DNA of 23,140 nt from a virus (taxonomy: Duplodnaviria; Heunggongvirae; Uroviricota; Caudoviricetes). This document shows positions 1 to 20,901 of the stretch, piece after piece. The DNA lies in IMG/VR virus record IMGVR_UViG_2869924733_000002. The stretch is one strand, 5' to 3'. Within the stretch, counting starts at the first letter, position 1. Each line of letters opens with the position of its first letter. A program made the translations under genes and the position numbers. Under the pieces are notes generated by a model. The model worked only from the letters and a program-made list of their open reading frames with translations, was not told the origin of the DNA and did no database searches.

Positions 1-819
1 ATGTGTCAGGTATTTGGTGTATCCAGGAGCGGTTATTACAACTGGGTACAGCATGAACCCTCAGACAGAAAACAAAGTGATGAGCGGCTAAAACTGGAGA
101 TTAAGGTGGCACATATCCGCACTCGCGAAACATATGGAACCCGGCGGCTCCAGACGGAGCTGGCAGAGAATGGCATCATCGTTGGTCGTGACCGACAGGC
201 ACGTCTTCGTAAGGAGCTAAGGCTACGCTGTAAGCAGAAACGCAAGTTCAGAGCGACTACGAACCCGAACCACAATCTGCCAGTTGCGCCAAATCTGCTG
301 AACCAGACGTTCGCTCCTACAGCACCAAATCAGGTCTGGGTGGCGGACCTGACGTATGTTGCCACACAGGAGGGATGGTTGTACCTCGCTGGCATCAAAG
401 ATGTTTATACGTGCGAAATTGTCGGCTACGCCATGGGAGAGCGCATGACAAAAGAGCTGACAGGTAAAGCCCTGTTTATGGCGCTCAGGAGCCAGCGCCC
501 ACCTGCCGGGCTAATCCACCACTCTGATCGAGGTTCACAGTACTGCGCATACGATTACCGGGTCATACAGGAGCAGTCTGGTCTGAAAACATCAATGTCG
601 CGTAAAGGTAACAGTTACGACAACGCTCCGATGGAAAGCTTCTGGGGAACGCTGAAAAATGAGAGCCTGAGCCACTATCGTTTTAATAACCGGGATGAAG
701 CCATCTCAGTAATACGGGAATACATTGAGATTTTCTACAATCGTCAGCGTCGTCACTCTCGTCTGGGGAATATCTCCCCGGCAGCCTTCAGGGAAAAATA
801 TCATCAGATGGCTGCTTAA
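1..819 (+). CDS. IS3-family transposase OrfB (IS600-like, tentative); DDE integrase core
   Basis: 272-aa ORF with the IS3-family catalytic-core pattern (NQVWVADLTYV...HSDRGSQY...YDNAPMESFWGTLKNE...). Starts at the window edge, so orfA and the left end of the IS are outside the window. Family call is from motif memory, not a search. Confidence 0.85.
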   Translation: MCQVFGVSRSGYYNWVQHEPSDRKQSDERLKLEIKVAHIRTRETYGTRRLQTELAENGIIVGRDRQARLRKELRLRCKQKRKFRATTNPNHNLPVAPNLLNQTFAPTAPNQVWVADLTYVATQEGWLYLAGIKDVYTCEIVGYAMGERMTKELTGKALFMALRSQRPPAGLIHHSDRGSQYCAYDYRVIQEQSGLKTSMSRKGNSYDNAPMESFWGTLKNESLSHYRFNNRDEAISVIREYIEIFYNRQRRHSRLGNISPAAFREKYHQMAA

Positions 820-862
820 AAAAAGAACAAATGGTAGTGTCCGCTATTGCCAGTACACCTCA
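1..862 (+). mobile_element. IS3-family insertion sequence, right-hand portion (truncated by window start)
   Basis: Transposase ORF ends at 819. The sequence ending at 862 (ggtagtgtccgctattgccagtacacctca) reverse-complements to TGAGGTGTACTGG..., the TG...CA terminus typical of IS3-family inverted repeats. Exact end is approximate. Confidence 0.6.
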
Positions 863-996
863 CACGCCATAACGGACTATATCGTTGGATATTACAGCGC
901 ACTAAGACCGCACGAATATAACGGTGGGTTACCCCCAAACGAATCGGAAAATCGATACTGGAAAAACTCTAACTCGGTGGCCAGTTTTTGTTGACC
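863..996 (+). mobile_element. IS911-like 3' remnant (last ~43 codons of an OrfB plus terminal inverted repeat)
   Basis: In frame from 863: [43 protein letters not shown]-stop, recalled as an IS911-type OrfB C-terminus. 961-996 reverse-complements to TGAAGTGGTCAACAAAAACTGGCCACCGAGTTAGAG, an IS3-family-style terminal IR. The IS600-like element sits inside it. Confidence 0.55.
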
Positions 997-1512
997 ACTT
1001 CAATATGCAACGCCGGGTGGCATGGATAAACCCGGAAGAGAGTAAATCAAACCGCGCAATCGGCGTTGCGCTGAATGATACTGCATGTCGCGTTTTGAAA
1101 AAACAAATCGGGAATCATCACCGTTGGGTATTTGTGTACAAGGAAAGCTGTACCAAACCAGACGGAACGAAAGCGCCAACAGTAAGGAAGATGCGGTATG
1201 ACGCAAACAGTAAGGAAGATGCGGTATGACGCAAACACAGCCTGGAAAGCGGCGCTGAGACGAGCTGGTATTGATGATTTCAGATTTCACGACTTGAGAC
1301 ACACCTGGGCAAGTTGGCTGGTTCAAGCCGGAGTCCCGTTGTCAGGGTTACAGGAAATGGGTGGCTGGGAGTCTATCGAAATGATTCGTCGATATGCTCA
1401 CCTCGCGCCTAATCACCTTACCGAACACGCACGGCAAATAGACTCGATTCTGAACCCATCGGTCCCAAATTTGTCCCAGTCAAAAAATAAGGAAGGTACT
1501 AATGATGTGTAA
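997..1512 (+). pseudogene. Tyrosine recombinase (phage integrase) 3' fragment, truncated by IS insertion and frameshifted
   Basis: Begins directly after the IS911-like IR. Contains the catalytic-domain motifs [16 protein letters not shown] and [10 protein letters not shown] (H-x-x-R and the Tyr nucleophile). The frame switches between track ORFs 924..1229 and 1198..1512 at the 28-bp duplication. Confidence 0.8.
1179..1236 (+). repeat. Perfect 28-bp tandem duplication (2 copies) inside the integrase remnant
   Basis: cagtaaggaagatgcggtatgacgcaaa occurs at 1180-1207 and again at 1208-1235. 28 is not a multiple of 3, so it shifts the frame and produces the repeated peptide VRKMRYDAN in both track ORFs. 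Confidence 0.9.
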
Positions 1513-1738
1513 CTTATTGATTTTTGGGATAATAGGAACAATACACATAGGCGATAAGCTTTGTTTTTGTTGCCTTTTTTATTGTTCATTTTTTATAGAT
1601 ACCCCCAAAAGTACCCCCATATCTTTTTCCGCCCCTGAAATTTGGTTGTTATTCATACAGCATATCAGGCGGTAACGCTCTCCCTTTAACCCACTTATTG
1701 TATGATAGTGCTATCCCACAATAAGGAATCAGCCAGCC

Positions 1739-2098
1739 ATGAGAATGACCAGTCGCAAAAAAGAGATACTTAGCTACTTTGAACCGGATAACCTCGAATG
1801 GGTGACTGGTGAGATTGGTGCGCCGCCGTTCGATGTGTCGGGTGTGGCCTACCTGCTTCATGGCATGGTGTCGTTCGATAAGCGTCACCAGCTCGAATCA
1901 ACCCGGCGCACACTGGAAAGCATGGTTGCTGGTGGACTGCTTGAGCGGGTGACAGTGTATGAATCGCGCCAGATACGGCGCGGCGGTGATACTAACGCAA
2001 CGGTCGTGCGCTACGGTTTACCCGGTCAGTGCGCTGTTATGCGCGATACTGGCGGCGCTGACAACGCAATATCAGGTGAATACATGCGGGTCAGTTAA
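1739..2098 (+). CDS. Hypothetical protein (119 aa)
   Basis: ORF with an AGGA-type Shine-Dalgarno upstream (ataaggaatcagccagccATG) and a protein-like composition. Its 3' end overlaps the convergent gene 2091..2633 by 8 bp. No family recognised. Confidence 0.5.
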   Translation: MRMTSRKKEILSYFEPDNLEWVTGEIGAPPFDVSGVAYLLHGMVSFDKRHQLESTRRTLESMVAGGLLERVTVYESRQIRRGGDTNATVVRYGLPGQCAVMRDTGGADNAISGEYMRVS

Positions 2099-2633
2099 TA
2101 GCCTGCAATCTGTCGTTGATGCGGCTCAGGTCGTAAACCCGGCGTTCAATATCCAGCATCAGGAAATTGTGGATCTCGGCCTGCTCAGGATTATCAGACT
2201 CTCTGGCCTGTAATAGCAATTCATTGTAACCATGCAAGCCGCCTGAGTTTTCCGCCGGGGTGGTGCCTTTCCCACGCAGGCAGCTAATGGGCTGATTACT
2301 CGTATCGTGTGTTTGCTTCTCCAGCACAATGACGCAATCCCACCAGTCGCCAAAGTCATACGTGTAAACCAGCTTGTCACCCTCATTCTGGAGCGCCGCC
2401 CATAGTGGCGTGATTGCCGCGTTACCCATGCTTTCATCCTCACCCCATACGCGATACTCGCTACCTGGATCACCTTTACGCCCTTTCTCGAACATATACA
2501 GGTGTTCGTCATTCCAGCCAAAAGCTAACTGGATCACGGCATGAAGTTTACTAAAGGGGATTTGCTCTGGAACCAGCACACGCCGCCATATAGGTGGTTT
2601 GCTGTCTCGGATGGTTATCTTTAGCTGGTACAT
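2091..2633 (-). CDS. pRiA4b ORF-3-like family protein (plasmid/IS passenger protein of unknown function)
   Basis: 180-aa ORF with the recalled signature of this family (KITIRDSKPPIWRRVLVP...YTYDFGDWWDCVIVLE). Confidence 0.7.
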   Translation of the reverse strand: MYQLKITIRDSKPPIWRRVLVPEQIPFSKLHAVIQLAFGWNDEHLYMFEKGRKGDPGSEYRVWGEDESMGNAAITPLWAALQNEGDKLVYTYDFGDWWDCVIVLEKQTHDTSNQPISCLRGKGTTPAENSGGLHGYNELLLQARESDNPEQAEIHNFLMLDIERRVYDLSRINDRLQAIN

Positions 2634-2753
2634 GCAAATCCTGAATAAATGCGAATCGGAAGGATAACGATACTGACGTACTCACAATTCTGTAAAGGTG
2701 AATAAAGGAAATTTGCTTAATACGCATAAGTTACATGTGGAATAATCCCATAT

Positions 2754-2939
2754 CTACCTGCGCGGCGCTGGCTTCTTCCACTGGTAGGCAGGTGCTCGCA
2801 TCATTTCGCGGAACCTGTCGCGCCGGGCTATATCGGCATTAACTGATCGTTCTATCTCCCGTTGATCTGCCTGTGTAAGCTGGTGGCCTCCGTGCTCAAG
2901 TTTGGCGATGGTCAATAAGGCTATTTCGCGTGGTGTCAT
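2754..2939 (-). CDS. Small hypothetical protein (61 aa), paralog of 3750..3968
   Basis: MTPREIALLTIAKLEHGGHQLT... shares an almost identical N-terminal block with the product of 3750..3968 (TPREIELLTIAKLEHGGHQLS). GAGGG-type SD upstream. Function unknown. Confidence 0.55.
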   Translation of the reverse strand: MTPREIALLTIAKLEHGGHQLTQADQREIERSVNADIARRDRFREMMRAPAYQWKKPAPRR

Positions 2940-3236
2940 ACGTCATACCCTCTGGAAGGATGAAACACGCCCGGATTAAATTTCATTTTTCGCGGGTATA
3001 AAAAAACGATGGGGCGGGCAGTCCCGGATAGTCAGGGCTGTAGAGATTTGACTACCCCCTCCCCACTGGATTCAGGTTACTGCTATTCCGTTAAGCGCTG
3101 CTTACGGGGATAGCTGCGTTGTGATTTTGACCATTCAGGTCGCCGCTATTTCCTCACCGATTGGGTGCTACGCGCGCGCGTACTTGTCCCGAAATACCAG
3201 AAACCGCCAGCCAGAGGATGATTTCCCTCTGGTGGT

Positions 3237-3518
3237 CTACCTTTGCCTCTTGCCGCCATTTAACCGGAAGGCGTTACCGTTCGGTTGCGCTATCCCCATG
3301 CGGTGTTGCGTTTCGGTAACAGCTTTATGCAGGTCGCCAAATTCCTCAACCTTCACGGGCGGGCGCTTCACGTTCTCCAGACACGTTTCACGGCGGCGCT
3401 TTATCCATTCCCGATCATCGTCCTCGGTGCATAACAGCATGACTTCCATCCATCGTGCGGCAGCTCTCCGGTATAGCCCTTTTGACTCCAGCTCTTCAGC
3501 TTTCCTGTCCCTTATCAT
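3237..3518 (-). CDS. PerC-family transcriptional activator-like protein (93 aa)
   Basis: N-terminal block KAEELESKGLYRRAAARWMEVM matches the recalled PerC/Pch-family signature. Assignment is from memory of the family motif. Confidence 0.5.
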   Translation of the reverse strand: MIRDRKAEELESKGLYRRAAARWMEVMLLCTEDDDREWIKRRRETCLENVKRPPVKVEEFGDLHKAVTETQHRMGIAQPNGNAFRLNGGKRQR

Positions 3519-3554
3519 TTCTGCCTCTCAGATTATATAGATAAGCAAAAAGGT

Positions 3555-3675
3555 GTTGGTTCAGTTGGTTCAGTTGGTTCAATTTGTAAAGAGTATTGTT
3601 TTTAAAAGAATTATTCGCAAAAAGTGAACCAACACACCCCATTTTTGAACCAACAAAAAGAGGCCGTGAACCAAC
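3555..3675. repeat. Iteron cluster: GTTGGTTCA x3 in tandem plus three inverted copies (TGAACCAAC) at 21-bp spacing
   Basis: Tandem 9-mers at 3555-3563, 3564-3572, 3573-3581. Inverted copies at 3625-3633, 3646-3654, 3667-3675, each 21 bp apart. The same module is present in reverse orientation at 13139-13249. Confidence 0.8.
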
Positions 3676-3749
3676 ACGCCGTTTAAAAACCGCTAATTAT
3701 GAGGGACATCCACCAGCACAGGGCTTGTCTAGTGCTGGTTAGGTGCTGC

Positions 3750-3968
3750 TCACCGCGCACGGAGCGGCGCTGGTTTGCTCCAGCGATATGCGGGGCTGGT
3801 CATCATTTCGCGGTACCGCCTGGCTATTACAGGGCCCTCTGCCAGCTGGCGCCTTAATTCCCGCAGTTCTGCCGGGCTGAGCTGGTGGCCGCCATGCTCC
3901 AGCTTGGCAATGGTCAGCAGCTCGATTTCTCGTGGTGTCATGGATTCCCCTCTGATGGTGATCGGCAT
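3750..3968 (-). CDS. Small hypothetical protein (about 62-72 aa), paralog of 2754..2939
   Basis: Track ORF MPITIRGESMTPREIELLTIAKLEHGGHQLS...; the true start may be the internal Met at MTPREIELL. Confidence 0.55.
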   Translation of the reverse strand: MPITIRGESMTPREIELLTIAKLEHGGHQLSPAELRELRRQLAEGPVIARRYREMMTSPAYRWSKPAPLRAR

Positions 3969-4107
3969 TATATTGCTAGCCAGGGTGATTCTTCACTGGC
4001 CAGAGCCGTTGTGCGTGAAGTCTATGCGTGAACTCCATATGCTATGTGTTAAGTTACAGCTCAAAATGTCCTGTTCCGGTGGTAACTTTTTGGTAAACAG
4101 CGTTTTG

Positions 4108-4143
4108 GTGGATACCAACATGGATACCTCGCTTTTGGATACC
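4108..4143 (+). promoter_or_regulatory. Three direct repeats of TGGATACC upstream of the AlpA-like gene (putative operator)
   Basis: TGGATACC at 4108-4115, 4121-4128 and 4136-4143, 50-85 bp upstream of the ATG at 4193, in the divergent region between 3750..3968 and 4193..4378. Confidence 0.35.
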
Positions 4144-4192
4144 ACCCAAAGCCAGATTGTCACTATGCTTAATCTAAAGCAGAGGAGCCTCT

Positions 4193-4378
4193 ATGCGCCT
4201 TATCAAATTAAGCGAAGTCATGCTCAGAACGGGCTTCAAGAAAACGGCAATCTACTCATGGGTTAAGACGGGCACGTTTCCACAGCCAGTTAAAATTGGT
4301 AGATCAGCTAGATGGTCGCTTGAGGAGGTTGAAGCTTGGATCCAGAACAAACTTGATTCGCGGGCTGGCAACCAATGA
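4193..4378 (+). CDS. alpA: AlpA-family phage transcriptional regulator / excisionase-like protein
   Basis: 61 aa, MRLIKLSEVMLRTGFKKTAIYSWVKTGTFPQPVKIGRSARWSLEEVEAWI, the typical AlpA helix-turn-helix signature. SD AGAGGAG just upstream. Confidence 0.85.
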   Translation: MRLIKLSEVMLRTGFKKTAIYSWVKTGTFPQPVKIGRSARWSLEEVEAWIQNKLDSRAGNQ

Positions 4379-5342
4379 TTAGCTTTAATATCGAGTGGTG
4401 GATAGTCCATGGACAAGCTGATGGGCGCACTCGACGAAAACGATGCGCCAGGCGGACTGTGTCGCTCATAAACCGGGAGTTGGCCAGAGGACTTAGTTGT
4501 CCTTTGCAATTCTGCAGGTTCGCACGTGAAAGTAGCCAAAACCCTGCGAACCTGAGTGCAAACCTGCAACTGCGAACCACTGAGGTGGCCTCTCATAGCT
4601 GGTGGTCATACTGGATATTAATCAGGCCTGCCACAACCATAACAATCCATAACAGACGCATCGCACCAACAATTACTAATAGGTCCGCTCGCAACACTAA
4701 TTTTGACTAAGCCTGAACGCAATGCTCAGAAAGAACGAAGAATGGAATGAATCGTACCATCATGTTGCTCCATGATTTTTACGTTCAAGACAGTTGCTTA
4801 ATCTCGCCTCGCAATTCAGCCCCCTTGCCGTTATCGAGAAGTCTTTCTCCTTACGGTTAATGCTATCGGTCTTCATATTACCAGCAGCATACGCCATCCG
4901 ATTATTTCGATGCTACGCGCGCGTACTTGTCGCAAAATACCAGGCAAAGGCCAGATTCAGAACGTCGTGATAACCACCAGTACAACATGAGAGGTCATGT
5001 AACGCGATTTATCACACCAGATACATGTGATTGGTGTACCCGCATAAAACATCGTCATAGCGCGTCCTGTGCGCATATACGCCGATAATCAACACATCAC
5101 CACCACTCTGTCTCATGTAGAGAACAGTTTTATGGTATCCCCCCGCCATCGTGTGCATACTGGTCGGACGTAGTTGCAAAATTTTTTGCAACTGATACCC
5201 CTCGCGCGCGTACTTGTCTCGAAATTGGTGTTTTGCTGTGGCAGTGATATCAGAAAAATCTTCCTGTTTCACATAAAGCGGATATGCGCGTACTGTAACG
5301 GCCCCATCAACGGGGATCGGATTTGAAATCCCGACCCAAGCT

Positions 5343-5762
5343 ATGTACCAAATGCCATGTCTTGGATATATGATGATTGCCATTCTAAACAAAGCTAAAG
5401 GGAGGGTTGGTGTGAATGCTCAGGCTGTCATCATGGTTTTCCTTGGTCTGATTGTCGCAAAACTATATCCAGACTGGTGGAAAGGGGCATTAGCAACTGT
5501 CGCCATCTATTTGCTTTTATCCGTCGTTAAGCGATCGTTCGTTAAGACCGTAAATCAAGCAAAACGTTTCTCATTTAAGAATTTAATAAACTATATTACT
5601 GGGCTTATTTTTTGCCTTTCAATTTTGATCGCCTCAGCTTTTTTGCCCGTATCAATAGCTAATTTTTTTGGCGCACCATATGAGGTAGGTTATCTATTCT
5701 CTGTTTTTTGTCTTGTTCTTTCCCTTCTTTACCTATGGATGAGAGCAAAGAACAAAAATTAG
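5343..5762 (+). CDS. Small polytopic membrane protein, AT-rich (candidate superinfection-exclusion or immunity protein)
   Basis: Three to four long hydrophobic segments (VIMVFLGLIVAKL, LATVAIYLLLSVV, ITGLIFCLSILIASAFLPV, LFSVFCLVLSLLYLW). Likely true start is the in-frame GTG at 5412, 5 nt after GGAGGG at 5401-5406. Convergent with the end of the large operon. Confidence 0.55.
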   Translation: MYQMPCLGYMMIAILNKAKGRVGVNAQAVIMVFLGLIVAKLYPDWWKGALATVAIYLLLSVVKRSFVKTVNQAKRFSFKNLINYITGLIFCLSILIASAFLPVSIANFFGAPYEVGYLFSVFCLVLSLLYLWMRAKNKN

Positions 5763-5775
5763 CCATCCATGGCTA
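5751..5775 (-). terminator. Putative intrinsic terminator for the minus-strand operon
   Basis: On the minus strand, a TTAGCCATGGATGGCTAA hairpin (7-bp stem) is followed by TTTTTGT. It lies right after the stop of 5781..7879 and overlaps the stop codon of the convergent gene. Confidence 0.45.
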
Positions 5776-5780
5776 ACCAG

Positions 5781-7879
5781 TTATTGAGCTTCTTTTTGTG
5801 ATGCCTGTGCGACTCTGGTGAGCGATTGTGTGACCGTACTGATCGCTCTGTCATATGCTGTGCTACCTTTTGGCGTATTTGCCAGACGTAACAAGGCATT
5901 TCGTATAACAGGGCTTTCGTATGCCTTCGCTGCTCCGCCTACGGCACCAGCAGCAGGAACAACAAACGCAGCCGTTTTTAGCATCCCCGCTAATACTGCT
6001 GCGTTTATGATGCCACCACCAACTAACAATCCATAAAGCTGCTGACCATTTAAGTTTTGAACGTTCGCTTTTGCCGCGTGTCTTGTATCGTTGAGGTATT
6101 TAATAACGCCGTCCAGTTCCTTTCCATGTACGCCTTTAAAGAAAGTTGCTGATTGCTTCCTGTTCCGGTGTAACGCATTAATAAACTTCTCAACACTGAT
6201 ATTTCCAGACGGATCAGTCGCCTTATCTACAGCATTCTGAACTATGGCTGCTCGTGCGTTTTGCCTACCATTGTCATCCAGAAGCCTGTAAAGCTGAGAA
6301 CGTTCTGATGGGCTTTGGCTAAAAACGAGTTTTGTTACATCCTCAGGCGTGGCCTTGCCGCTGGCTATTGCCTTTTGAACGCGCGTTCTTCCCATCATGT
6401 CATTGAATTTAGACCATGAGCGATCAACCCTTGCCATATTAATGGCTTCGTCTGCTCCAAGATTTTTGGCTACGGCTTTTTTCATATCCGCCGTATATGC
6501 CTTGTAGATAATATCGCTGGCTTTCTGGAGCGTATCTTTATCAACAGTGTCAGATGACGCCATAAATCGCTTTCGAAGATCGGTTCTGTTTTCCCTCGCC
6601 AGACGCAGGTCATTTGGTCCGCTGGTGATATCGTCTTTAAATTGCTGCAAGACTTTTACCGCGGCTCTATCCTGAGATTTGCCCGGGCGGCTTAACACGG
6701 CAATCTGATTGTCGATAGCTTTTACCGTGTTTGAGAGATCGACAGGGGTATCCCCCATAGCGTCAATTATGCGGTTATATCGCTTTCCTGCTGCCTCAAT
6801 GAATTTTTGTTGCCCTTTAGTCGCAGATTCATAAAGCTGTTTATCAGAAATGCCACCCAGACCATCGCTAAATGTTCTGACTAAATTTTCTCGTGCTTGT
6901 TGTTGATTCAGCCGATTCTTACCGGTTCCAAAAAAAGGAACTCTTTCGCCTAATGTCTGAGCCTGACTCTGCATAAAGGTTTTATCTTTCAGCATGTCAC
7001 TGGTCATTAACGGCAGATTTCTTTCCGATGCAAAGTCGACAGCAGCCTTTGCTTCAGGCGACATATCACCACGAACAGCCCTCGAAACCGCACTCGCTGT
7101 ATTTTCCAGCCCCTTACCAATACCACCAATGCCAGCAGAAATTACCGTTTGTAACGGATCAATATCTTCTCCACCAGCAAGGCTGGTGGCTCCCTGTAGT
7201 GCTAAATCTGTAGCTGCTGATTTTCCTATAGCACCAAGCACCGTTCCAGCCCTGCCCACTGGTGTAAACGCCAACGCATTAGCAAGAAACGAAGTCAGGT
7301 CTTGCGGTGATAAACCCGGCTTGTTCAGGGCATAATCACCTGATGGCAGAGAAACGATAGTATTCCCCTTCTCATCCTGCCTTAATGTCGCCCCCATTCC
7401 CTGAAGAATCTTTTCCTGAGACGCGTCAGAGCCGAAAAGTTGAGACCATCCAGCCTTTAGGGCATCCATGCTTAGTGAGTTCAATTCTGGGGCAGAGGTG
7501 ACATTTTGCAGTCTCTCCATCTCTGGAGTCATTCGGCTTTCGCCTGTTATAGCATCGCGCATCGCAGCCCCAAGACTGGCTCCCTGTTCTGCTGAACGCT
7601 CAAGCCCCTCTCTTTGCTGAGTAGCTAACTTTGCATACCCTGACGCAAGAGAATTATCAGATGATGTATGTTGAATATTTTGAGTTGCTGATTGGGATCG
7701 GTCTATTTCATTCGTTGATGGTAGTGGATAGGCAGCATAAAAAGCCTGCTTAGCCTGCTCTACACTTTCTCCGGCTTGCGGGGCAACGACTTCATTGAAG
7801 TATTGCTCCTGAGCCTGCGCTTTTTGTTCTGGTGCTAACGCCTGATACTGTGGAGAGGCGATAACATCTTTCCATGCTT
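5781..7879 (-). pseudogene. Large alpha-helical protein (about 701 aa when reconstructed), cut from its start codon by an IS insertion; DNA-ejection/internal-virion-protein-like (tentative)
   Basis: Track ORF 5781..7562 stays open upstream to 7879. Removing the IS (7882-8797) and one TA copy joins it to ATG GC at 8800-8804, giving MAKAWKDVIASPQYQ... in frame with a TAATG overlap to the upstream gene. Has a hydrophobic Gly/Ala-rich segment near the C-terminus. Confidence 0.6.
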
Positions 7880-7941
7880 TAGGCTGTGTCCCTTAATCAT
7901 CTGAGCTATAGTAACTGTCTGTTTACACAACATATTGAACT

Positions 7942-8391
7942 ATGGCTCGCTACGACCTTCCCGATGAGGCATGGACCATCATCAAGCCCCTGTTACCTCC
8001 TGAACCCGCCACACCACGGGCCGGACGCCCATGGGCTGAGCACCGTAAAATCATCAATGGCATGTTCTGGGTGTTATGTTCCGGTGCACCATGGCGCGAT
8101 TTACCCGAACGATATGGGTCATGGAAAACTGTTTATAACCGCTTTAACCGATGGTCAAAGTCAGGCGTGATTAATATTATTTTCAACAGGTTGCTTTCGC
8201 TACTTGATGCAAACGGCTTTATTGACTGGTCTGCCACCGCGCTGGATGGCAGTAATATCCGGGCGCTGAAATGTGCCGCCGGTGCTCAAAAAAACATCCC
8301 GATATCGACGGAGATAATGGGCCGGGTCGCTCTCGCGGCGGTTTTGGCACCAAAATCCATCTGGCAACAGACGGAAGTGGCCTCCCGTTAA
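7942..8391 (+). CDS. IS5-family transposase OrfA (N-terminal part)
   Basis: MARYDLPDEAWTIIKPLLPP... is the N-terminal domain typical of two-ORF IS5-family transposases. Overlaps OrfB in the -1 frame. Confidence 0.8.
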   Translation: MARYDLPDEAWTIIKPLLPPEPATPRAGRPWAEHRKIINGMFWVLCSGAPWRDLPERYGSWKTVYNRFNRWSKSGVINIIFNRLLSLLDANGFIDWSATALDGSNIRALKCAAGAQKNIPISTEIMGRVALAAVLAPKSIWQQTEVASR

Positions 8392-8786
8392 ATATCGTGC
8401 TAAGCCCCGGACAAGCTCATGAAAGCCAGTTCGCGCAACGACTTCTGGACGGGATTGGCGTTCAGCGTCAGAACGGCAGCATGAAACGCCGTGGACATGC
8501 GGTACTGGCTGATAAAGCGTATTCAGGGCGCGCATTGCGCAACGAGCTGAAAAATAACGGTATAAAGGCAGTAATCCCCCGAAAGTCAAATGAGAAAATG
8601 GCATCGGATGGACGTGCACAGCTTGATCGTGATGCGTACTGCAATCGTAATGTCGTTGAACGGTGCTTTGGGCGGCTGAAAGAATATCGCCGCATCGCCA
8701 CGCGTTACGACAAAACGGCGAGAAATTACCTGGCGATGGTGAAACTGGGCTGCATCCGACTCTTTTATCAACGCTTACGTAATTAA
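8271..8786 (+). CDS. IS5-family transposase OrfB (DDE domain); probably expressed as an OrfAB fusion by -1 frameshift
   Basis: DDE-type motifs (GGFGTKIHLATDGSGLP..., DKAYSG, VERCFGRLKEYRRIATRYDK). An A7 run at 8288-8294 lies in the OrfA/OrfB overlap. Confidence 0.8.
   Translation: MCRRCSKKHPDIDGDNGPGRSRGGFGTKIHLATDGSGLPLNIVLSPGQAHESQFAQRLLDGIGVQRQNGSMKRRGHAVLADKAYSGRALRNELKNNGIKAVIPRKSNEKMASDGRAQLDRDAYCNRNVVERCFGRLKEYRRIATRYDKTARNYLAMVKLGCIRLFYQRLRN
8288..8294 (+). other. Candidate programmed -1 ribosomal frameshift heptamer (AAAAAAA) in the IS5-family transposase
   Basis: OrfA reads caa aaa aac; OrfB reads tca aaa aaa cat, shifted by -1 over the same A-run. Confidence 0.5.
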
Positions 8787-9887
8787 GGGACACAGCCTAG
8801 CCATTAATCACCCCATAGTGAAGAAAAGTTACTGCTGGCTGCTGGCTGTGATACCTGCTCAGATTGCGGCAATGTCTGCGACGAAGAAGAAGTTCCTCTG
8901 TCAACTGCTGAAATAACCCGCAAAGCATCATAAGCTCGACCAGAAGCAGCTTTCAGCGAATTGAACTGGTTTTCCATCTTCCGGCGCTTGGTATCAATGG
9001 TTTTTGTGGAGTCGCCAGGCTGAGGGAAATACATTTGATAATATTTTGACATTTCAGCAGGTGCGATAGCTGCCCCTGTTTCCTGACGGAGTATTGCCAT
9101 TATTGCGTCATTAGCATTAACAACGTATTGCTGCTCTGTTGGGCTGAGCGTTAAGTTAGCCAGCGTCCCATTACCCAAAGCATTATTAATGATCGCCACT
9201 CGCTGTGGGCTAAGCTGGTCTTTCAGTGTATCTATTGAATCAAGAGCATCCCTAACCCTGTATGCAAATCCAGCAGCTTTTTTAGCCCCTTCTGGCGACT
9301 TTTCCATGATCTTTTGGGCTGTTGGCAAAGCTATTGGACGAAACCCATCTCCAGATATTGGCTGGTTTAGTTTTCCCTGCTCTTCACTTCCGTCTGTGTA
9401 GTATTTTGTGACAGTGCCATCATCGTTTTCTCTAACACTCATTAATTTTTTGGCGTTTGTATTAATTCCAGCCGCTGCCGCAAATGCCGCCGCCCCCTCT
9501 GGATCCGCCTTTAACATTTGAGCGTACTGATTGTAATTCTGCATTGCTGCTGTTGGTGCATATGCTGACGTTAACGCATTTGCTCGGCTAATATCCTGCC
9601 CTCTCGCCTGAAGTGCTTCGCCAGCCTGATTGCTGCGGATTGTCTCTGCCAACTTGCCACGCTCAATATCCCGACCTTCCATTTGATCTTTGATATCGAA
9701 ATACTTCTCATGACCGAGAGAAAACAGTGCCATACTACCAGCAAGCCGCTGGAATCCCTGTGGATCATTAACATGCATTTCGGCAACAGACTCAGGAGAA
9801 ATTCCCAAGCGACGCATTTCATCTTCGTTATCTGCTATGAATTTTCCAAATGCCCCAGTTCCGAGCGAAGATGCGATTTGAGCACTA

Positions 9888-11040
9888 AATAGCTGCGCTT
9901 AATACCGCTACACTTTTGCCAGTCCATGTTTGCCTCCGGGGAATGGGCTGACGGTTTCCATAAAATGGCGAACTTTTTTCAACAGTTGCCACATTGAGCG
10001 GCACTGATGATTACGCGTTATTGTGTCGTGAAGTGCCTGCCATAGCCGTTCAACATGATTCACCCATGGCGAGTAAACCGGCTGATAAATGACCCTGAAC
10101 TTCGGGTTCTCCTTCAGCCAGCTCTGTGTTTCCCGGCTTTTGTGGATAATGTAGTTGTCCACGATCAGCGTGATGGTTTTCGCCCGACGGTATGTCGCTT
10201 TAAGCCGCTTCAGCAGGCTGATGAACAGCGCCGAACTTTTGCTGTTGCCGCCCACATAGCTGACTTTACCTGTCCCGCTGTGCAGCGCTCCGGCCAGATA
10301 ATATTTTTCATTCTGTCCCGGCGTGACCACCCGTTTTTGCTGTCCGCGCAGTTGCCAGTCCGCACCGATTTTGGGATGAAGATGGATATCCACTTCATCT
10401 TCATAAAAGACCGGATGCTCTGCGCTGCATTCGTCCAGTGCTTTATGGATTGCTGCCATCTTTTCATCTTTATGCGGGTCACGGATACGCAGAGTTGGCG
10501 CAGCCCTTCGCCACACAATCCCCGCAGACGGCAACCAGCGGCGAACGGTTCCGGCATTTAACTGGCAACCGGTTATCTCATTGATTTTTATTGCCAGCAG
10601 TTCTGTACTCCAGCGTGAACGCTGGTAGCCAAAGTCGCCGGGAGAATGTTTTACCAGCTCACGTAACAGTGTGCAGATATGCTCAAACGGCCAGCGACGG
10701 GCACGCCCGGCAGGTAATGATTTCAGTCCCTCAACACCCGACTGCGTGAACCAGTTAATCCAGCGTCCAACAGAGGAACGGGCGCAGCAGAGCGTTCTGG
10801 CAACGTCGCTGACACGGTCGCCCCGGTGCAGCATCAGCATGGCAGTCAGTCTGCGGGCATAATTTTTATCGTGTGTTTTATGGATGGCTTTCTGCATCAG
10901 GCGTCGTTCGTCACGGGAAATTGGTGCTATGATCGGCATTGCTCAGTCCGGTTGGTGATTTGTTTTGATTTGGCGATTGATCAGATCGCACAATCCGGGC
11001 TAAGTTCCCTCAAAATGATCTACTATTCCGCGCAGCTATT
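9888..11040 (-). mobile_element. IS630 (1153 bp) inserted at a CTAG target with TA duplication
   Basis: Terminal inverted repeats: aatagctgcgc at 9888-9898 and its reverse complement gcgcagctatt at 11030-11040. TA at 9886-9887 and 11041-11042. Length is exactly 1153 bp, matching the recalled IS630 size. Confidence 0.9.
9908..10939 (-). CDS. IS630-family transposase (343 aa)
   Basis: Full-length 343-aa ORF inside the IS630 boundaries, recognised as the Tc1/mariner-like IS630 transposase. Confidence 0.9.
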   Translation of the reverse strand: MPIIAPISRDERRLMQKAIHKTHDKNYARRLTAMLMLHRGDRVSDVARTLCCARSSVGRWINWFTQSGVEGLKSLPAGRARRWPFEHICTLLRELVKHSPGDFGYQRSRWSTELLAIKINEITGCQLNAGTVRRWLPSAGIVWRRAAPTLRIRDPHKDEKMAAIHKALDECSAEHPVFYEDEVDIHLHPKIGADWQLRGQQKRVVTPGQNEKYYLAGALHSGTGKVSYVGGNSKSSALFISLLKRLKATYRRAKTITLIVDNYIIHKSRETQSWLKENPKFRVIYQPVYSPWVNHVERLWQALHDTITRNHQCRSMWQLLKKVRHFMETVSPFPGGKHGLAKV

Positions 11041-11379
11041 TAGTCGCAAGATGACCAATAGAATTTCTCTGGTCGTCATCAATAAAGCCCATCCCTTTCT
11101 GAACGCTTTCAAATTCTTCTGGATACTCAGAAATAAGACTGCGCATTTTGTTTCTGTCTCCAGACTCAAAAGCCCCGGCATATGCTTTCTGAAACTCTGC
11201 TTTACGCTGTTGTTGACGTGCCTGCTGATTAATCTCAGCAACGCCTCTTAGCCCCTGTAGCGCCATTAAACCTACGTTTGGGTGCTGCTGATACTGCACA
11301 GGCTGAGGAACGGAAGAACGAGGAGCATTATCATTTTGCGGTGCCATGCTAGGCAGCCCGCCAAGTTGCCATGTCGCCA

Positions 11380-12057
11380 TTAGAATCCAAGCCCCCCAAC
11401 AAGACCAATAAGCCCACCACCAATAGCCCCGGCGACATTACCTATACCCGGAACAACGGAACCAAGTTGCGCACCCGCTAAAGCGCCTGATGCCGCCCCA
11501 CCAATACCACGCGCAAGACTGGATGGCTGCTGCGCCTGACCTGCACGAATAGCGCCAAGCCCCTGCAAGAGTTGCCCGGTATTATTGGCGTAGTTTTGCC
11601 CTGCTGTTGCCTGCCCTGATGCCGCATTCATCCCGACATTTAGCAGGTTTCCATAATTTTGCATTTGCCCACTGAGCCAATTGTTATAAAGCATGGGCGC
11701 AATGGAAGATAACTGGTTACTGGTAGCTGTTGAGCCAAGCCCCCCGGTAGCTTCTGCTGAGACAAGGTTCTGATAACGGGCCTGATCTGCCTGTGTTTTA
11801 TATAAACCAGAACCAAAGAAATCATTCGCGGCTTTATTCTGCCCTTCCAGAGTCATCAGTCCTTGCAGTTGTTGTAAAGCAGGCAATCCGACTTCTGCAT
11901 ACGGCTTGAGATTATTCATCACCGTATTCCACTGCTCGCGCTGCAAATCAATTGCCTGCTGCTGGGCCTTCGCCTGAGCTTTAGAGGCACCACCATCACC
12001 GCCTTTTTCGTATACGGCACGATTGAGATGTTTATGAGCTATATGGGTAATTAACAT
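11380..12057 (-). CDS. Hypothetical protein (225 aa) with Gly/Ala-rich glycine-zipper C-terminus; ejection-protein-like (tentative)
   Basis: C-terminal ...GIGGAASGALAGAQLGSVVPGIGNVAGAIGGGLIGLVGGLGF. Stop overlaps the next start (TAATG); start overlaps the upstream gene by 7 nt. Confidence 0.65.
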   Translation of the reverse strand: MLITHIAHKHLNRAVYEKGGDGGASKAQAKAQQQAIDLQREQWNTVMNNLKPYAEVGLPALQQLQGLMTLEGQNKAANDFFGSGLYKTQADQARYQNLVSAEATGGLGSTATSNQLSSIAPMLYNNWLSGQMQNYGNLLNVGMNAASGQATAGQNYANNTGQLLQGLGAIRAGQAQQPSSLARGIGGAASGALAGAQLGSVVPGIGNVAGAIGGGLIGLVGGLGF

Positions 12058-12512
12058 TCGCTGAATTCCTTATATTGTTGCCGAGTTAACTGATAAAGCG
12101 TTACGCCGACGGGTTTACCACATCTGATATAAGCATCATCAAGGTGACCAACACGGGTAGCGCCAAGCAAACGGATAATTGCCCGTCCATATTTCGTGGT
12201 GTCAGGAACCATAGTGATGCTGTTAAGGAATGGTGAGTTTTCGAGAAGCCATTTGCAGAATAATCGATGCCCTTGCAGTGCATATTCACCACGGAATCCG
12301 GGGTCGTACACCGCATGGCATTCAACAACGCTATGCCAGAAGTTACGCACTTCATGAACGCCAGCCAGCACTAATCCTTCGTAGATGCCGAGATATACCG
12401 CATCAGGCTTGATGTAGTACGTGTGCCCCGGCTCAACAATATTTTCGGTATTGCCTGGCTCGTTAAGAAAGGCCTGTAATCGCACAGGGTTATCAATAAA
12501 TTTTAGTTCCAT
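12051..12512 (-). CDS. Hypothetical protein (153 aa), first large gene of the operon
   Basis: ATG at 12512 lies 16 bp after the stop of the 53-aa ORF. Protein-like composition; no family recognised. Confidence 0.6.
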   Translation of the reverse strand: MELKFIDNPVRLQAFLNEPGNTENIVEPGHTYYIKPDAVYLGIYEGLVLAGVHEVRNFWHSVVECHAVYDPGFRGEYALQGHRLFCKWLLENSPFLNSITMVPDTTKYGRAIIRLLGATRVGHLDDAYIRCGKPVGVTLYQLTRQQYKEFSEC

Positions 12513-12528
12513 GCGATGCCATCCATTT

Positions 12529-12690
12529 TCACATACAGCCTGCCAGCGCCTTATCTATTAACCCTCGTGCAATTTCATGCAGAGTTGGCGCTACTCCAAT
12601 TCCTGATTTTTTACGCTGCTCTTCCTGAATTTTCTTTATCGCTTCCATTTGCTTCTCACTTATCAATACCGGCTTTACTGAAATAGCCAT
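12529..12690 (-). CDS. Small protein (53 aa), possible ribbon-helix-helix-type regulator
   Basis: Not in the ORF track (shorter than 60 aa). ATG at 12690 is preceded by AAGGGGG. Translation MAISVKPVLISEKQMEAIKKIQEEQRKKSGIGVAPTLHEIARGLIDKALAGCM has a short N-terminal strand followed by helices. Fold assignment is inference. Confidence 0.4.
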   Translation of the reverse strand: MAISVKPVLISEKQMEAIKKIQEEQRKKSGIGVAPTLHEIARGLIDKALAGCM

Positions 12691-13138
12691 AACGCCCCCT
12701 TATAACTGTATAAAACAACAGTTATTATAGTTTCACAAATCGCAATATTCATCATCGTAATTGCAGAATATGAAACAAATAGCACAAAAAAATGCCACCG
12801 CTCAGTAGCTGGTGGCGTCGTTCTGTGTGTCAGGTTTTGACAGGTTTTTTATGGACTCTAAAAACTATATTTATGGTGTCGCATTACTCTTCACGGCAGG
12901 CGCTTTTCAGTTCTGCCCTTGCTTCTGGCTCCATTGGTAATTTGATTCGCGATCAGCTATGCGGATGGTTTGCTGAACAGGCATAACAACTTCTCAGAGG
13001 CTGTTTTTTGAACTACGAAAATTTCGTAGTGCTCACTTTCAAAAACGTCACGCCCTTGTACACAGGATTTTACGAAAGTCTCGTAAAACACTCTCTGATG
13101 CCAGCCAGGTGTTGTGCGCATCAATTCAGTCACATTGT

Positions 13139-13249
13139 GTTGGTTCAAAATACCGTGTTGTTGGTTCAGTGTTGGTTCAATAAAAAGAATAAAATCCTTA
13201 TAAAACAATACCATTTACAAATTGAACCAACTGAACCAACTGAACCAAC
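13139..13249. repeat. Iteron cluster immediately 3' of the primase-helicase gene (crr/ori-like)
   Basis: GTTGGTTCA at 13139-13147, 13160-13168, 13171-13179, then TGAACCAAC x3 in tandem at 13223-13249. Reverse complement of the module at 3555-3675, including an identical core of about 45 bp. Confidence 0.8.
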
Positions 13250-13274
13250 ACCTTTTCTACGCACATGAAGAAGC

Positions 13275-16034
13275 TCATTCTTCAGATGAGTTATAATCTC
13301 CTGGCTGGTAATTGAGTACATAAACGTTTATTTGTCGTCCCTGAATACGTGGTGATTTTCTTTGGTATCCACGACCGCTGTTTGGTGGGGTTAGCATCCC
13401 GGCTTTTTTCAACACTTCAGCAAACTGTTTTGCGTTGAAACCACATGCGATCTCCTTTTCAAATGTGGCCGGGAATGTGTAGAAAATCATTGGGCTTTCG
13501 TCATGTTCTCCACGCTGACGGTATCCGGCTAAATCTTTGATGGGCAAATCTGCCGGGCTGTATGGAAATGGTGCAAAACGGCTAAGCCCATAGGCATTAA
13601 GAAATGCCTCCGTTTGTTCAATAATCTGCTGATGTTCTTTGTTACCTGTGCCGAACTCGCGCAACCATGCGTTATAGCTGTGCTGTATCGCATCACGGCA
13701 TGTCTGAGCATCCCAGCCTGTTACAACCTCGCCTAACAGCAATGCGGCCTCCAGAATGGCAAATCGCGCGGCTACACGGTGAACCTGCTCACCATAATCG
13801 GATGGGATCAGGTTTCTCCATCTGCTTTCGCAATCACGAACGGTTTTAATAGCCTGTTGCTGGTGGTCTGCCAGCCATTTAATCCACTCACGCCCGGCTG
13901 CGCCGTGGTGATGCTGGTAAGCGTCTTTCAGTGCGTCTGCGTGCTGTTTTCCGTTCTGGTAATCGTGAAAGCGTACTGCTTTACTCAACGGAATATTCAG
14001 CAGTCGCACCAGTTGCCCGGCTTTGGTTTTTCGCCCGGAAGTAGCGATAAATGTTTCTAAATCCATTTCTCCGGTGCTGATTGCCACTGTACGCCAGCGT
14101 TTTAGATCCCGGTTTCCACCATCTTTAGCGCCTTGCAGTTTCCCTACACCGTTAAATAACGCATAGGCAGACTGTGAAACGCTGACAGGATCAGCGCCCT
14201 GACCAACTTCATCAAGCGGCATTAGTCCGTCATTGTGGGCGGCGGCCTCATTTGCCAGCCCCAGCGCGGTTCCGTACCACGTCAGCCGCAGTAAATCAGG
14301 GTTGCCGTATAAGCTGCTCGCCACGTTTGCCGTGGTGGTCTTACCTGCGCTCGACTGCTCATAGAAATGAATGCCGAACCCGTCAGCGCCCACCAGCCCA
14401 ATCAATGGCGCTGCCAGTGCTGCGCCGATCCCGGTCATCATTGAATAGTTACCAAAGGCCAGACGCGCCACGTTATCACGCCAGCTTTTCGCGCTCCCTG
14501 AGACGGTATATCCGGCTGCGGCTGAGCTTCTCCCGCTGAACAGCACAGGATTTTCAGGTGTTCCGATGATTTCCCCATCAGGCATGATGTACGCTCCGCA
14601 TTGCCAGCCAGTGGCATGAGCAACACGCCACAATTCACGAGAGCCACTGCGTTGTAGCCAGTCTGCCAGTATTGCTCTGAGGCTGCTTTTGGTCGTGACA
14701 TTTACCCCACCAGCTTTAAGTGTGCGCCATCCTTCACGTTCACCAATATCAGCCAGTGGAATGGCAGCGGTTGTCGGCGTTTCAGAACCAAACGACAGCC
14801 AGCGAAGAATGAGATACTGGTCTTTATCGTCTCTGCCAGTACCGATAACGCTTAACGGAGAACATAACCAGCTTTCGTTATTGATGATTTCTCCACTCTG
14901 GCTGTCAGCTCTCGGAGATACCCAATAAATACCATCCTCGCGGCTTTCTATTCTTGGTTTCAGTGGGTCGGTATCCATAACCTTAAAATCGCTTCCCTCA
15001 ATGGTCTGTGGCTCCTGTTTCACGCCATTACCCTGTGGTTGGTACATTGACTTATTGAACGCTTCTGTGGCGCATTTAATGCCGTGTTTTTGGTGGTAAT
15101 CATTCCAGTCTGCTTTGTGATCTGTCGGGGGTAATGCCACCCATCCAGAAACAGATAAAGCTGCTTTTTCTGCTGCTATTCTCCCCGTGTTTTGTCTTCC
15201 TTCGCTGTGGTCGTTATCCGCAGCAATGATGATTTGTGCTGAAGGAAATTTATCCCGCAGTACCTGGGCGACATATAACAGGTTCCCGGCATCAATCGCC
15301 GCCACTGTCAGCGCCTCTGGACGAATTAAATGGGCAGATAATGCCGTTGCCAGCCCTTCTGCGATTAAGATGCTCTGTGTTGTTTCTGGCGCGTTTATGG
15401 CGTGATATGCCCCCCGCTTTGCTGAACCTGTCAGGAGTCTTTTTTCACCATGTGATGTAATAGTCTGTGCTGCTGTGACTGCGCCGGATTTATCCACCAG
15501 CGCCAGCAACAGAGATCCATCGGGCAACACGGGGAATGTAAAATCACCTACCCCTTTCGCAACCAGATAATCAGATTTGCCGTTTACAGCCTTTCTGCGC
15601 ATGTCATCAAACTGACGGGAAAACGTATCCCGTCTTTGTTGTTCGTCCTTCTCTGCCCTTTTCAGGCGCTCCTGTTCGCGTCGCTGGCGCTCGGTTTCCA
15701 GTTGTTCCCGTTTCTGGCTGGTGGCTTCTGGTGTTTCCGTTGTCCGGTAATCAATACCCAGAACATCAGCGGCAAGAAGCGCCGCCTCTGTTGTGTCGCA
15801 GTTATTTACGCGTTTAATTAAATCCAGCCCATCACCAGCGCCGCACTGATTACAGATGAAGCTACCGCGCCCGTTGTCATCGAACCGGAATCGATCTTTG
15901 CCCCCACATGCAGGGCAGGGAGCATGACGGCGCGGAGAGTCAGGGACATTTATGTTCAGGCAGCCCAGCACATGAGGCCAGTTGTTTTCAGACGCACTGA
16001 TAACCTGACGGATAAGATCAATGTTTCGCATCAC
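13275..16034 (-). CDS. P4 alpha-like bifunctional DNA primase-helicase
   Basis: 919 aa. N-terminal Cys-rich zinc-binding motif (CPACGGKDRF...CNQCG), primase-like acidic motif (IIIAADNDHSEG), then a P-loop (EQSSAGKTT) in the helicase part. Start is GTG at 16034 or ATG at 16031. Confidence 0.9.
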   Translation of the reverse strand: MMRNIDLIRQVISASENNWPHVLGCLNINVPDSPRRHAPCPACGGKDRFRFDDNGRGSFICNQCGAGDGLDLIKRVNNCDTTEAALLAADVLGIDYRTTETPEATSQKREQLETERQRREQERLKRAEKDEQQRRDTFSRQFDDMRRKAVNGKSDYLVAKGVGDFTFPVLPDGSLLLALVDKSGAVTAAQTITSHGEKRLLTGSAKRGAYHAINAPETTQSILIAEGLATALSAHLIRPEALTVAAIDAGNLLYVAQVLRDKFPSAQIIIAADNDHSEGRQNTGRIAAEKAALSVSGWVALPPTDHKADWNDYHQKHGIKCATEAFNKSMYQPQGNGVKQEPQTIEGSDFKVMDTDPLKPRIESREDGIYWVSPRADSQSGEIINNESWLCSPLSVIGTGRDDKDQYLILRWLSFGSETPTTAAIPLADIGEREGWRTLKAGGVNVTTKSSLRAILADWLQRSGSRELWRVAHATGWQCGAYIMPDGEIIGTPENPVLFSGRSSAAAGYTVSGSAKSWRDNVARLAFGNYSMMTGIGAALAAPLIGLVGADGFGIHFYEQSSAGKTTTANVASSLYGNPDLLRLTWYGTALGLANEAAAHNDGLMPLDEVGQGADPVSVSQSAYALFNGVGKLQGAKDGGNRDLKRWRTVAISTGEMDLETFIATSGRKTKAGQLVRLLNIPLSKAVRFHDYQNGKQHADALKDAYQHHHGAAGREWIKWLADHQQQAIKTVRDCESRWRNLIPSDYGEQVHRVAARFAILEAALLLGEVVTGWDAQTCRDAIQHSYNAWLREFGTGNKEHQQIIEQTEAFLNAYGLSRFAPFPYSPADLPIKDLAGYRQRGEHDESPMIFYTFPATFEKEIACGFNAKQFAEVLKKAGMLTPPNSGRGYQRKSPRIQGRQINVYVLNYQPGDYNSSEE

Positions 16035-16389
16035 CGTACCCCACGTGGTCTATAGCGTTTGCGATATGGCTAACCAGCATCTGCCACTTGGTTATTCCGT
16101 AATCAGTCAGCATGCCATCATTGTTTAGCCACATATCAAATTCAGCGGTTGTCGCAAGTTTCCACTTATCGCCGTGGACAGTCCTCATTGCTGGGTACAT
16201 GAATGCGCAAATCAGATCACAAACATCTGACGGCTTCAGAGATGTAGTAATGGTGCGTCCCTCTGGCGTCTGAATTGCCATTTTCTCTTCACCAGTAGAA
16301 TGAAGGTTATGAATCCACACAGCACCAGCAATCTTTGCCACCTGCTCTCCGATTGCGGAGCTAAGCGCCATTTCTGCATTTTCACGCAT
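16018..16389 (-). CDS. Hypothetical protein (123 aa)
   Basis: Strong SD (GGGAGG) before the ATG at 16389. Overlaps the primase start. Confidence 0.6.
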   Translation of the reverse strand: MRENAEMALSSAIGEQVAKIAGAVWIHNLHSTGEEKMAIQTPEGRTITTSLKPSDVCDLICAFMYPAMRTVHGDKWKLATTAEFDMWLNNDGMLTDYGITKWQMLVSHIANAIDHVGYGDAKH

Positions 16390-16723
16390 GAGAACCTCCC
16401 GCTACAGTTGCGCCCATGTCATTAACCATGCTTTGCCATATCTCACGCCCGACGTCAGTCAATCCGTCCTTAGTGACGCAACGCTCAAGAAGCTCGATCC
16501 CCACGGTTTCCCACTGCGGGTAGAACACTTTCATGGCTGCCAGTGTGTAGCTATCGATCAGGCTGCGAACGCCTTTTACTCCATTAACGATTTCCACACG
16601 TACGGCCTCGCCGTCCGCATCAACCATGAAATAGTCCCCGCCGCTGGTGGAGGTAATGTGGTTATACAGTGCCGACGCATACTTATTTGCCAGCGCATTC
16701 AGTCGGAAATTTTTAGTAATCAT
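16382..16723 (-). CDS. Hypothetical protein (113 aa)
   Basis: SD GAGGATGGAG before the ATG at 16723. Overlaps the downstream start by 8 nt. Confidence 0.6.
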   Translation of the reverse strand: MITKNFRLNALANKYASALYNHITSTSGGDYFMVDADGEAVRVEIVNGVKGVRSLIDSYTLAAMKVFYPQWETVGIELLERCVTKDGLTDVGREIWQSMVNDMGATVAGGSHA

Positions 16724-16733
16724 GGCTCCATCC

Positions 16734-20063: not shown

Positions 20064-20075
20064 TTTCAGTCTCCG

Positions 20076-20704: not shown

Positions 20705-20822
20705 GTTTACTCCTATATTCTGTCATCTTCTTTAATGGACATCAGTAGACAGAAAGGAGATTAAACAAACCGGTGAATGGGTGATAGCGGATAAAAATAA
20801 AATATTTTTTTGAGAAGATTAT

Positions 20823-20857: not shown

Positions 20858-20901
20858 AAATCGCGAAATTTACTTAAAACGTTTACGTAGGATTTTGCTT
20901 G

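Follow-up and report, generated by a model that had tools for sequence, protein, structure and literature searches.

The window (the whole stretch analysed, 23,140 nt) is an Escherichia coli chromosomal island, and stretches 100% identical to it are found in several complete genomes. As the initial annotation had claimed, it holds a gene for a predicted membrane protein on the plus strand that faces the minus-strand gp16 gene at the 3′ end of an ejection operon (gp14-gp7-gp20-gp16). The features at this junction are as follows.

5012..5383, minus strand: divergent neighbour ORF, WP_001444474.1, 123 aa; context, outside the cassette
5362..5411, plus strand: shared upstream expression region, near-identical before four different cassettes
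5400-5406, plus strand: strong Shine-Dalgarno (SD) sequence GGGAGGG, 5 nt ahead of the GTG at 5412
5412..5762, plus strand: coding sequence of the 116-aa protein (the exchangeable cassette), GTG start, TAG stop
5757..5778, minus strand: terminator-like hairpin of the ejection operon, 9-bp stem, 4-nt loop, U-rich tail
5781..7882, minus strand: gene for a P22 gp16-type ejection (DNA transfer) protein; an insertion sequence (IS) at 7883-8797 separates its first codons

The coding sequence sits within a longer plus-strand ORF (5343..5762), and the initial annotation gave the protein a size of 116-139 aa, a range that brackets the true value of 116 aa. The gene has 116 codons in 12 of the 12 homologous genes compared, and the in-frame stretch 5′ of the GTG is short and unrelated between contexts. 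The 139-aa reading is therefore an artefact of ORF extension, and the 129-aa RefSeq model WP_000560496.1 is likewise over-extended. The start codon is GTG in six of seven loci checked (ATG in L028), and AAGGAGG stands at the position of the Shine-Dalgarno sequence in Edwardsiella, Yersinia and other E. coli contexts. Comparison of homologues gave dN/dS values of 0.13-0.5 without indels, so the protein is under purifying selection; the reading frame is kept even relative to the Yersinia copy, where dS reaches 1.2-1.3. The ORF is a real gene. A chance ORF with no function might be argued from the missing database family match and from the disagreement of annotation pipelines over the start codon, but the exact length of every homologue compared, the selection on the frame, the conserved ribosome-binding site (RBS) and the 13 cluster representatives with a conserved motif recovered by profile search make that reading hardly conceivable.

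The gene has a GC content of 0.379, against 0.471 for gp16 and 0.483 for the whole window, which bears out the lower GC noted earlier. The gap at third codon positions is smaller (GC3 0.368 versus 0.409 in gp16), so that the AT-richness comes partly from amino-acid composition. A recent acquisition, which had been read from the low GC, is in keeping with the AT-richness but is only weakly favoured, because GC3 differs less than GC and because the gene and the adjacent gp16 have diverged together in E. coli, Edwardsiella and Yersinia.

The gp16-type protein belongs to phrog_770 and matches P22 gp16 at 30% identity along 478 aa (E 1e-53). Only 18 nt separate its stop codon (5781-5783) from the TAG at 5760-5762, and the latter lies inside the hairpin at 5757-5778, just as first described. 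On the minus strand the stem end and the T-rich tail together read TTTTTGTTCTTT. At -11 kcal/mol (z -1.56) the hairpin is of modest stability, and it is conserved across genera in E. coli, Edwardsiella and Yersinia loci.

On the other side of the gene, the region 5362..5411 precedes not only the 116-aa gene but also sieA-like, secreted-protein and P0022-like cassettes. Within it, TGnCATTCT at 5378-5386 resembles an extended -10 box, and some 25-33 nt 5′ of the start codon such a TGn extended -10-like element is conserved. A promoter scan of the sequence 5′ of the gene did not yield a strong sigma-70 consensus promoter, and we tentatively regard the TGn element as the putative promoter of the cassette, which would put the start of transcription about 17-20 nt 5′ of the GTG. 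The first codons of the divergent ORF WP_001444474.1 overlap this region; the ORF is frameshifted in two other loci (L012 and L016) and has no family match in Pfam, PHROGs, PADLOC or NCBIfam scans. Its C-terminal part may loosely resemble RelE/ParE-type toxins.

Kyte-Doolittle hydropathy reveals four hydrophobic segments in the 116-aa protein. An AlphaFold2 model built from 13 family members places helices at residues 3-18, 22-50, 55-85 and 90-115 with a pLDDT of 72.9; an earlier AlphaFold2 model was poorer (pLDDT 58.6). Hydropathy and model thus agree on four helices, in line with the transmembrane (TM) segments expected from the initial annotation, and the protein is predicted to span the membrane several times. 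The loop between helices 2 and 3 carries a charge of +5 and the C-terminal tail +3, and the remaining two loops carry 0 and -1; from this positive-inside pattern an N-in/C-in topology is predicted. The protein would accordingly be a four-TM inner-membrane protein with its termini and the basic helix 2-3 loop in the cytoplasm and the loops containing YPDWW and GAPYEVG in the periplasm. Conservation is highest in TM1 and the LGLIVAKLYPDWW stretch that follows it (periplasmic loop 1) and in TM3, and lowest in the cytoplasmic loop and the C-terminal tail.

A set of variant proteins (L009 4505-4945, P0020, P0022, P0036, P0042 and P0043) keeps the TM1 motif (I/V)IIILLGLIVAKLYP while the remainder of the protein differs. 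The N-terminal motif of these variants is conserved at the protein level despite many synonymous DNA differences, and the set pairs with another gp16 type, phrog_6704. P0020 has a Bax1-I Pfam match below threshold (23.8 bits against a cut-off of 34.1). Judged by their sequences, these variants point to a modular protein in which constraint falls on the first helix.

The family has few members. Among 1.84 billion representative proteins, a profile search returned 13 matches only; the named members come from Escherichia, Salmonella, Edwardsiella and Yersinia and are labelled 'hypothetical' or 'prophage protein'. A scan of GTDB species representatives added one doubtful 33% match in a Bacteriovoracaceae MAG (L011). 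Searches of 50,697 sequenced phage records with tblastn and megablast did not find the gene, which is therefore known only from prophages and islands. Scans of the protein against NCBIfam, PHROGs and PADLOC gave nothing significant (in PADLOC no match at E<=1), nor did a Pfam scan, made with a copy that did not contain the SieA model PF26849 and so did not test for SieA. A PDB sequence search returned no match, Foldseek searches of the pLDDT 72.9 model against BFVD and PDB returned nothing better than E 0.8, and a literature search that included protein accessions found no paper mentioning the protein.

The genomic position nevertheless recalls a well-known exclusion gene. SieA is a 162-164-aa inner-membrane protein that alone suffices to block DNA injection, and escape mutations from it map to gp16 and gp20; its gene is invariably located between genes 16 and 9 (Leavitt et al., 2024; PMC10883804). 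In P22, sieA is on the opposite strand, 22 nt past gene 16 (BK000583), so the arrangement given in the initial annotation is correct. Both sieA and the 116-aa gene are convergent on gene 16, both are found, in complete prophages, in the interval from gene 16 to the tailspike gene, and both are AT-rich genes with a GTG start for small multi-pass membrane proteins, predicted as such for the 116-aa one. The proteins themselves differ. SieA types A, B and C have 162-212 aa and a conserved C-terminal, cytoplasmic FxRYPxEAxxFNK motif, whereas the 116-aa protein has neither the motif nor a soluble segment, and its conserved residues fall in TM1 and the predicted periplasmic loops rather than in a cytoplasmic tail as in SieA.

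Sequence comparison gives the same picture. BLASTP of the 116-aa protein against P22 SieA yields E 0.95, and hhalign of the family alignment gives a probability of 0.6% against SieA type A and 0.08% against the type B protein of HS1. Since the Pfam copy did not contain the SieA model, the profile phrog_7745 ('SieA-like') was used with positive controls: it detects P22 SieA (9e-109) and HS1 SieA (6.5e-21) and misses the 116-aa protein and three distant relatives even at E<=10. The FxRYPxEAxxFNK-type motif is present in P22 SieA, HS1 SieA and the cassette protein of locus L035, and is absent from the 116-aa sequence and its family consensus. Membership of the SieA family is rejected on these grounds, with no homology to SieA types A or B. 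Nor did a relation to Imm-type families, which the initial annotation had put forward for comparison, come to light, as there was no PHROG or PADLOC match. More broadly, BLASTP, hhalign, PHROG, PADLOC and Foldseek found no sequence, profile or fold similarity to any exclusion protein.

Other P22-like phages offer looser parallels. HkcB (in HK620, CUS-3 and epsilon34) and ORF14 of phage N7 are also encoded convergently on a gp16 homologue and are membrane-anchored proteins of about 100 aa (PMC2629481); hkcB is AT-rich (GC 0.33) and N7 ORF14 less so (0.436). Both differ from the 116-aa protein, to which they have no similarity, in having a single N-terminal TM segment followed by a coiled-coil or soluble domain. 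In CUS-3 (L068 604-927) HkcB has 107 aa, an N-terminal TM segment and a coiled coil, and in N7 (L027 5782-6102) ORF14 has 106 aa and an N-terminal TM segment; each gene is convergent on gp16. Since these phages are P22-like and lack sieA, a membrane protein at this site seems to be typical of the group as a whole. The proposed action would also resemble in principle that of HK97 gp15 and T4 Imm-type proteins, small prophage- or phage-encoded inner-membrane proteins that block genome entry (literature as cited within PMC10883804). The 116-aa protein is unrelated to them in sequence, with no PHROG or PADLOC match. HK97 gp15 and the T4 Imm-type proteins act on long-tailed or T-even phages and are found in other genomic contexts.

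The closest link between the 116-aa gene and sieA comes from sister loci. With the C-terminal 300 aa of the window's gp16 as query, 33 IMG/VR loci were retrieved and their convergent neighbour was scored. The slot is occupied by the 116-aa family in 18 of the 33 loci, a 204-aa four-TM protein in three, a secreted phrog_2651 protein in four, an N7-ORF14-like single-TM protein in three, a lipoprotein in one and a C-terminally anchored coiled-coil protein in one; the last three hold nothing convincing. Two loci with the 204-aa protein (L035 and L041) match the window at 99.5-99.8% identity from gp16 to position 5761, in the stop codon, and at about 97% leftwards from 5415, one codon past the GTG; between these breakpoints they encode the 204-aa protein instead of the 116-aa one. 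The 204-aa protein is 34% identical to HS1 type B SieA (BLASTP E 2e-9), with NRYPGEAR conserved, reaches an hhalign probability of 93.7% against SieA type A, and has phrog_7745 as its sole PHROG match (E 4e-4). By these sequence comparisons it is a genuine SieA homologue.

Homology to the sister loci that carry sieA or the secreted-protein gene breaks at 5415-5417 and at 5761-5763. A common SD-GTG heads the 116-aa gene, the sieA homologue, the secreted-protein cassette and the P0022-type variant cassette, and one hairpin ends both the 116-aa gene and the sieA homologue. Given these shared signals and breakpoints at the codon edges, we conclude that coding sequences are swapped codon-precisely under identical expression signals, and that the 116-aa gene and sieA are exact allelic alternatives in one slot. 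Among complete E. coli genomes, sampled ones without the 116-aa gene show homology that stops at 5761 or 5763, followed by a sieA-like gene (WP_032328543.1) or a secreted-protein gene (WP_016231257.1).

Low GC is common to the occupants. The values are 0.379 for the 116-aa gene, 0.332 for the sieA-like gene of L035, 0.337 for P22 sieA, 0.363 for HS1 sieA, 0.330 for hkcB of CUS-3 and 0.436 for N7 ORF14, so that most occupants are AT-rich against 0.44-0.50 in gp16. Because this property extends to P22 sieA, the AT-richness of the 116-aa gene fits a moron-type cassette. The gene has the marks of a moron: it lies on the strand opposite to the late operon, has deviant GC and a terminator, and is an exchangeable unit; its promoter is tentative.

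The secreted-protein cassettes were seen at L045, L054, L064, L067 and L070. They have the same RBS and GTG and encode phrog_2651 proteins of about 105-130 aa with a Sec signal peptide, a conserved ECW motif close to the start of the mature protein and ...GKVxxKC at the C-terminus. The secreted protein may be a periplasmic exclusion factor.

The pairing with gp16 holds across the family. In every one of about 40 loci examined in detail, a gp16 gene adjoins the family member, even at identities as low as about 28-38%, and in a tblastn marker survey the gene was convergent on the same type of gp16 in 22 of 22 loci, with 23-24 nt between match ends and no SieA A or B match in any of the 22. The distant relatives P0037, P0041 and P0038 (about 28-38% identical) are convergent on a phrog_770 gp16 gene, and the P0022 variant is likewise convergent on a gp16 gene. 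Some carriers have portal, scaffold, coat, gp4/gp10 and tailspike genes and are complete P22-like prophages, for example L005-L008 in E. coli and L004 in Yersinia; in these the 116-aa gene takes the position of sieA, between gp16 and tailspike. Other carriers are primase-bearing islands like the window, for example in Edwardsiella (L003). Among 5426 complete genomes of E. coli, this gp16 type occurs in 453 and the 116-aa gene in 229; carriers include ABU 83972 and the blood isolate SF-088, which has a remnant of a K1-type endosialidase tailspike.

In the E. coli prophages L005-L008 (7764-9945), genes for an S9 peptidase, a DUF805 protein and a ClpP-like protein precede the 116-aa gene on the same strand. 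These four genes may form a moron or defence operon in the interval between gp16 and tailspike.

The remaining features of the island in the window are the following.

7883-8797: IS, 915 nt, precisely at the junction of genes 20 and 16, where an overlap of 3 bp is apparent
9888-11040: IS630-family element, 1153 nt, inside gp20
11380-12057, minus strand: gp7
12051-12512, minus strand: gp14/DUF2824
13275-16034, minus strand: TOPRIM/DUF927 primase
21926-23140, minus strand: integrase

The minus strand of the island also carries AntA/B-type and Ash-type genes, together with gp20 and gp16. The P22 ejection module (gp14, gp7, gp20, gp16) supplies its sole virion genes, and no terminase, portal, coat or tail gene is present in the island (window 5781-23140). 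The same architecture is found in L003, L012-L014, L017, L031 and L070, which include Edwardsiella (primase 78% identical) and a metagenome contig. By its gene content the island resembles a phage satellite, or an integrative element, equipped with ejection proteins of its own; a literature search found no paper on satellites with ejection proteins. In a sister genome the island adjoins tRNA-Thr and proA.

To the left of the element, at 1-3600 of the window and 1-17400 of the sister genome L001, are genes of CP4-6/CP4-57-type islands: a YkfI/YafW toxin-antitoxin pair, an antirestriction gene, and RadC/JAB, PerC and AlpA-like HTH genes. Further left, L001 has a heat-resistance locus (hdeD-GI, trx-GI, kefB-GI, psiE-GI). 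With CP4-type genes and this locus alongside, several islands are stacked at tRNA-Thr; no att repeat of tRNA-Thr was found within 37 kb in L001.

The two IS insertions, to judge from their positions, inactivate the ejection operon in the window copy. Here and elsewhere the 116-aa gene is intact where ejection genes are broken or gone. In L001 an IS66 interrupts gp16 instead, and the gene is again intact. In the P22-like prophage remnant of SF-088 (L033 9032-9361) it is intact beside an IS-truncated gp16. In E. coli O111:H8 (L034 8974-9363) it survives at the edge of an island remnant from which gp16 is deleted; the homology runs out within the terminator hairpin, and ykgL follows as the next gene.

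Together, these observations describe an AT-rich, self-contained cassette of the moron type. It takes up the sieA slot in P22-like prophages and in the primase-bearing islands derived from them, ends in the terminator of the ejection operon and would be transcribed against the late operon. The 116-aa family is an uncharacterised, non-homologous occupant of the sieA slot, and it probably acts as an exclusion factor at the level of the envelope. As to what it does there, we tentatively favour, without great confidence, a sieA-like role in which the protein blocks DNA delivery by P22-like phages at the inner membrane. We hypothesize that the resident element makes the 116-aa protein, and that this protein, at the cytoplasmic membrane or in the periplasm, hinders delivery of incoming P22-like DNA through the gp20/gp16 conduit. 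Contact might be made through the conserved periplasmic loops, whereas the conserved motif of SieA is cytoplasmic. A sieA-like job is the most likely one because sieA and this gene replace one another coding sequence for coding sequence under the same signals. The slot also holds unrelated genes (phrog_2651, lipoprotein, HkcB, N7 ORF14-like), so position alone is not functional proof, and it could be a general landing site for morons.

The main competing explanation takes up this last point: the gene would be a moron or defence cassette with some other action, such as membrane-depolarising abortive infection, activity against a different phage group or lysogenic conversion, and would share the slot with sieA merely because this site is a recombination hotspot where expression signals are already in place. 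Small envelope proteins of at least six unrelated kinds occupy the slot, Abi-family and toxin genes lie nearby in some contexts, and relatives have weak, sub-threshold holin and Bax1-I-like profile matches. Yet members down to about 28-38% identity are always gp16-linked, the swap with true sieA is exact, and those slot occupants whose function has been tested, SieA types A and B, all block injection (PMC10883804); we consider another action possible, though doubtful. One of the weak matches just mentioned, that of P0009 to Phage_holin_3_6 (E 0.076; 13.5 bits against a cut-off of 28.4), would together with the small multi-TM build of the protein suit a holin or antiholin. A lysis-related role is very improbable nonetheless, as the gene lies outside the lysis cassette of P22-like prophages, antisense to the late operon and with no adjacent endolysin, is kept in elements that have no lysis genes, and has no significant family match.

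The initial annotation had raised a pore-former/immunity arrangement as an alternative, in which the protein would guard its producer against the membrane activity of gp16, or assist gp16, as a partner of the element's own ejection proteins. The gene does adjoin gp16 and has co-diverged with it across genera, and gp16 associates with membranes (PMC10883804). A dedicated partner is hard to reconcile, however, with gp16 proteins of identical C-terminal 300 aa that pair with sieA, a secreted protein or nothing, or with phage N7, whose gp16 is 67% identical and which has no 116-aa gene. We disfavour this arrangement as improbable because the partners of gp16 vary in this way, because the gene outlives a deleted or truncated gp16, and because its convergent orientation means that the two are not co-transcribed.

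Exclusion of P22-like phages at the inner membrane remains our preferred reading, and it can be extended to the slot as a whole. The end of the ejection operon may be a socket for exclusion cassettes, in which at least four unrelated proteins each sabotage the gp20/gp16 conduit, although in this general form we regard the proposal as unlikely. One fixed promoter, RBS, GTG and terminator would accept SieA, the four-helix family, the phrog_2651 protein and the P0022-type protein. The four-helix family would then block injection by a new mechanism, recognising the conduit by its periplasmic YPDWW and GAPYEVG loops, and the socket would move together with the ejection module, on an island that resembles a satellite and encodes ejection proteins itself.

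The position of SieA and its injection block were already known; what is new here is a family in the sieA slot without SieA homology. The way in which SieA stops the ejection-protein conduit of P22 is a standing question, and there is the added difficulty that SieA types with little in common act against phages whose gp16 and gp20 also differ widely (Leavitt et al., 2024; PMC10883804). Another membrane protein in this socket, unrelated to SieA and far smaller, would open a separate approach to conduit blocking, as would two further cassettes, and a comparison of the cassettes' target ranges would indicate which parts of gp16 and gp20 are vulnerable. Because the gene is common, occurring in 229 of 5426 complete E. 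coli genomes, it could influence which hosts are open to P22-like phages used in therapy or typing. The slot also offers an example of how prophage defence hotspots trade whole coding sequences at codon-precise boundaries.
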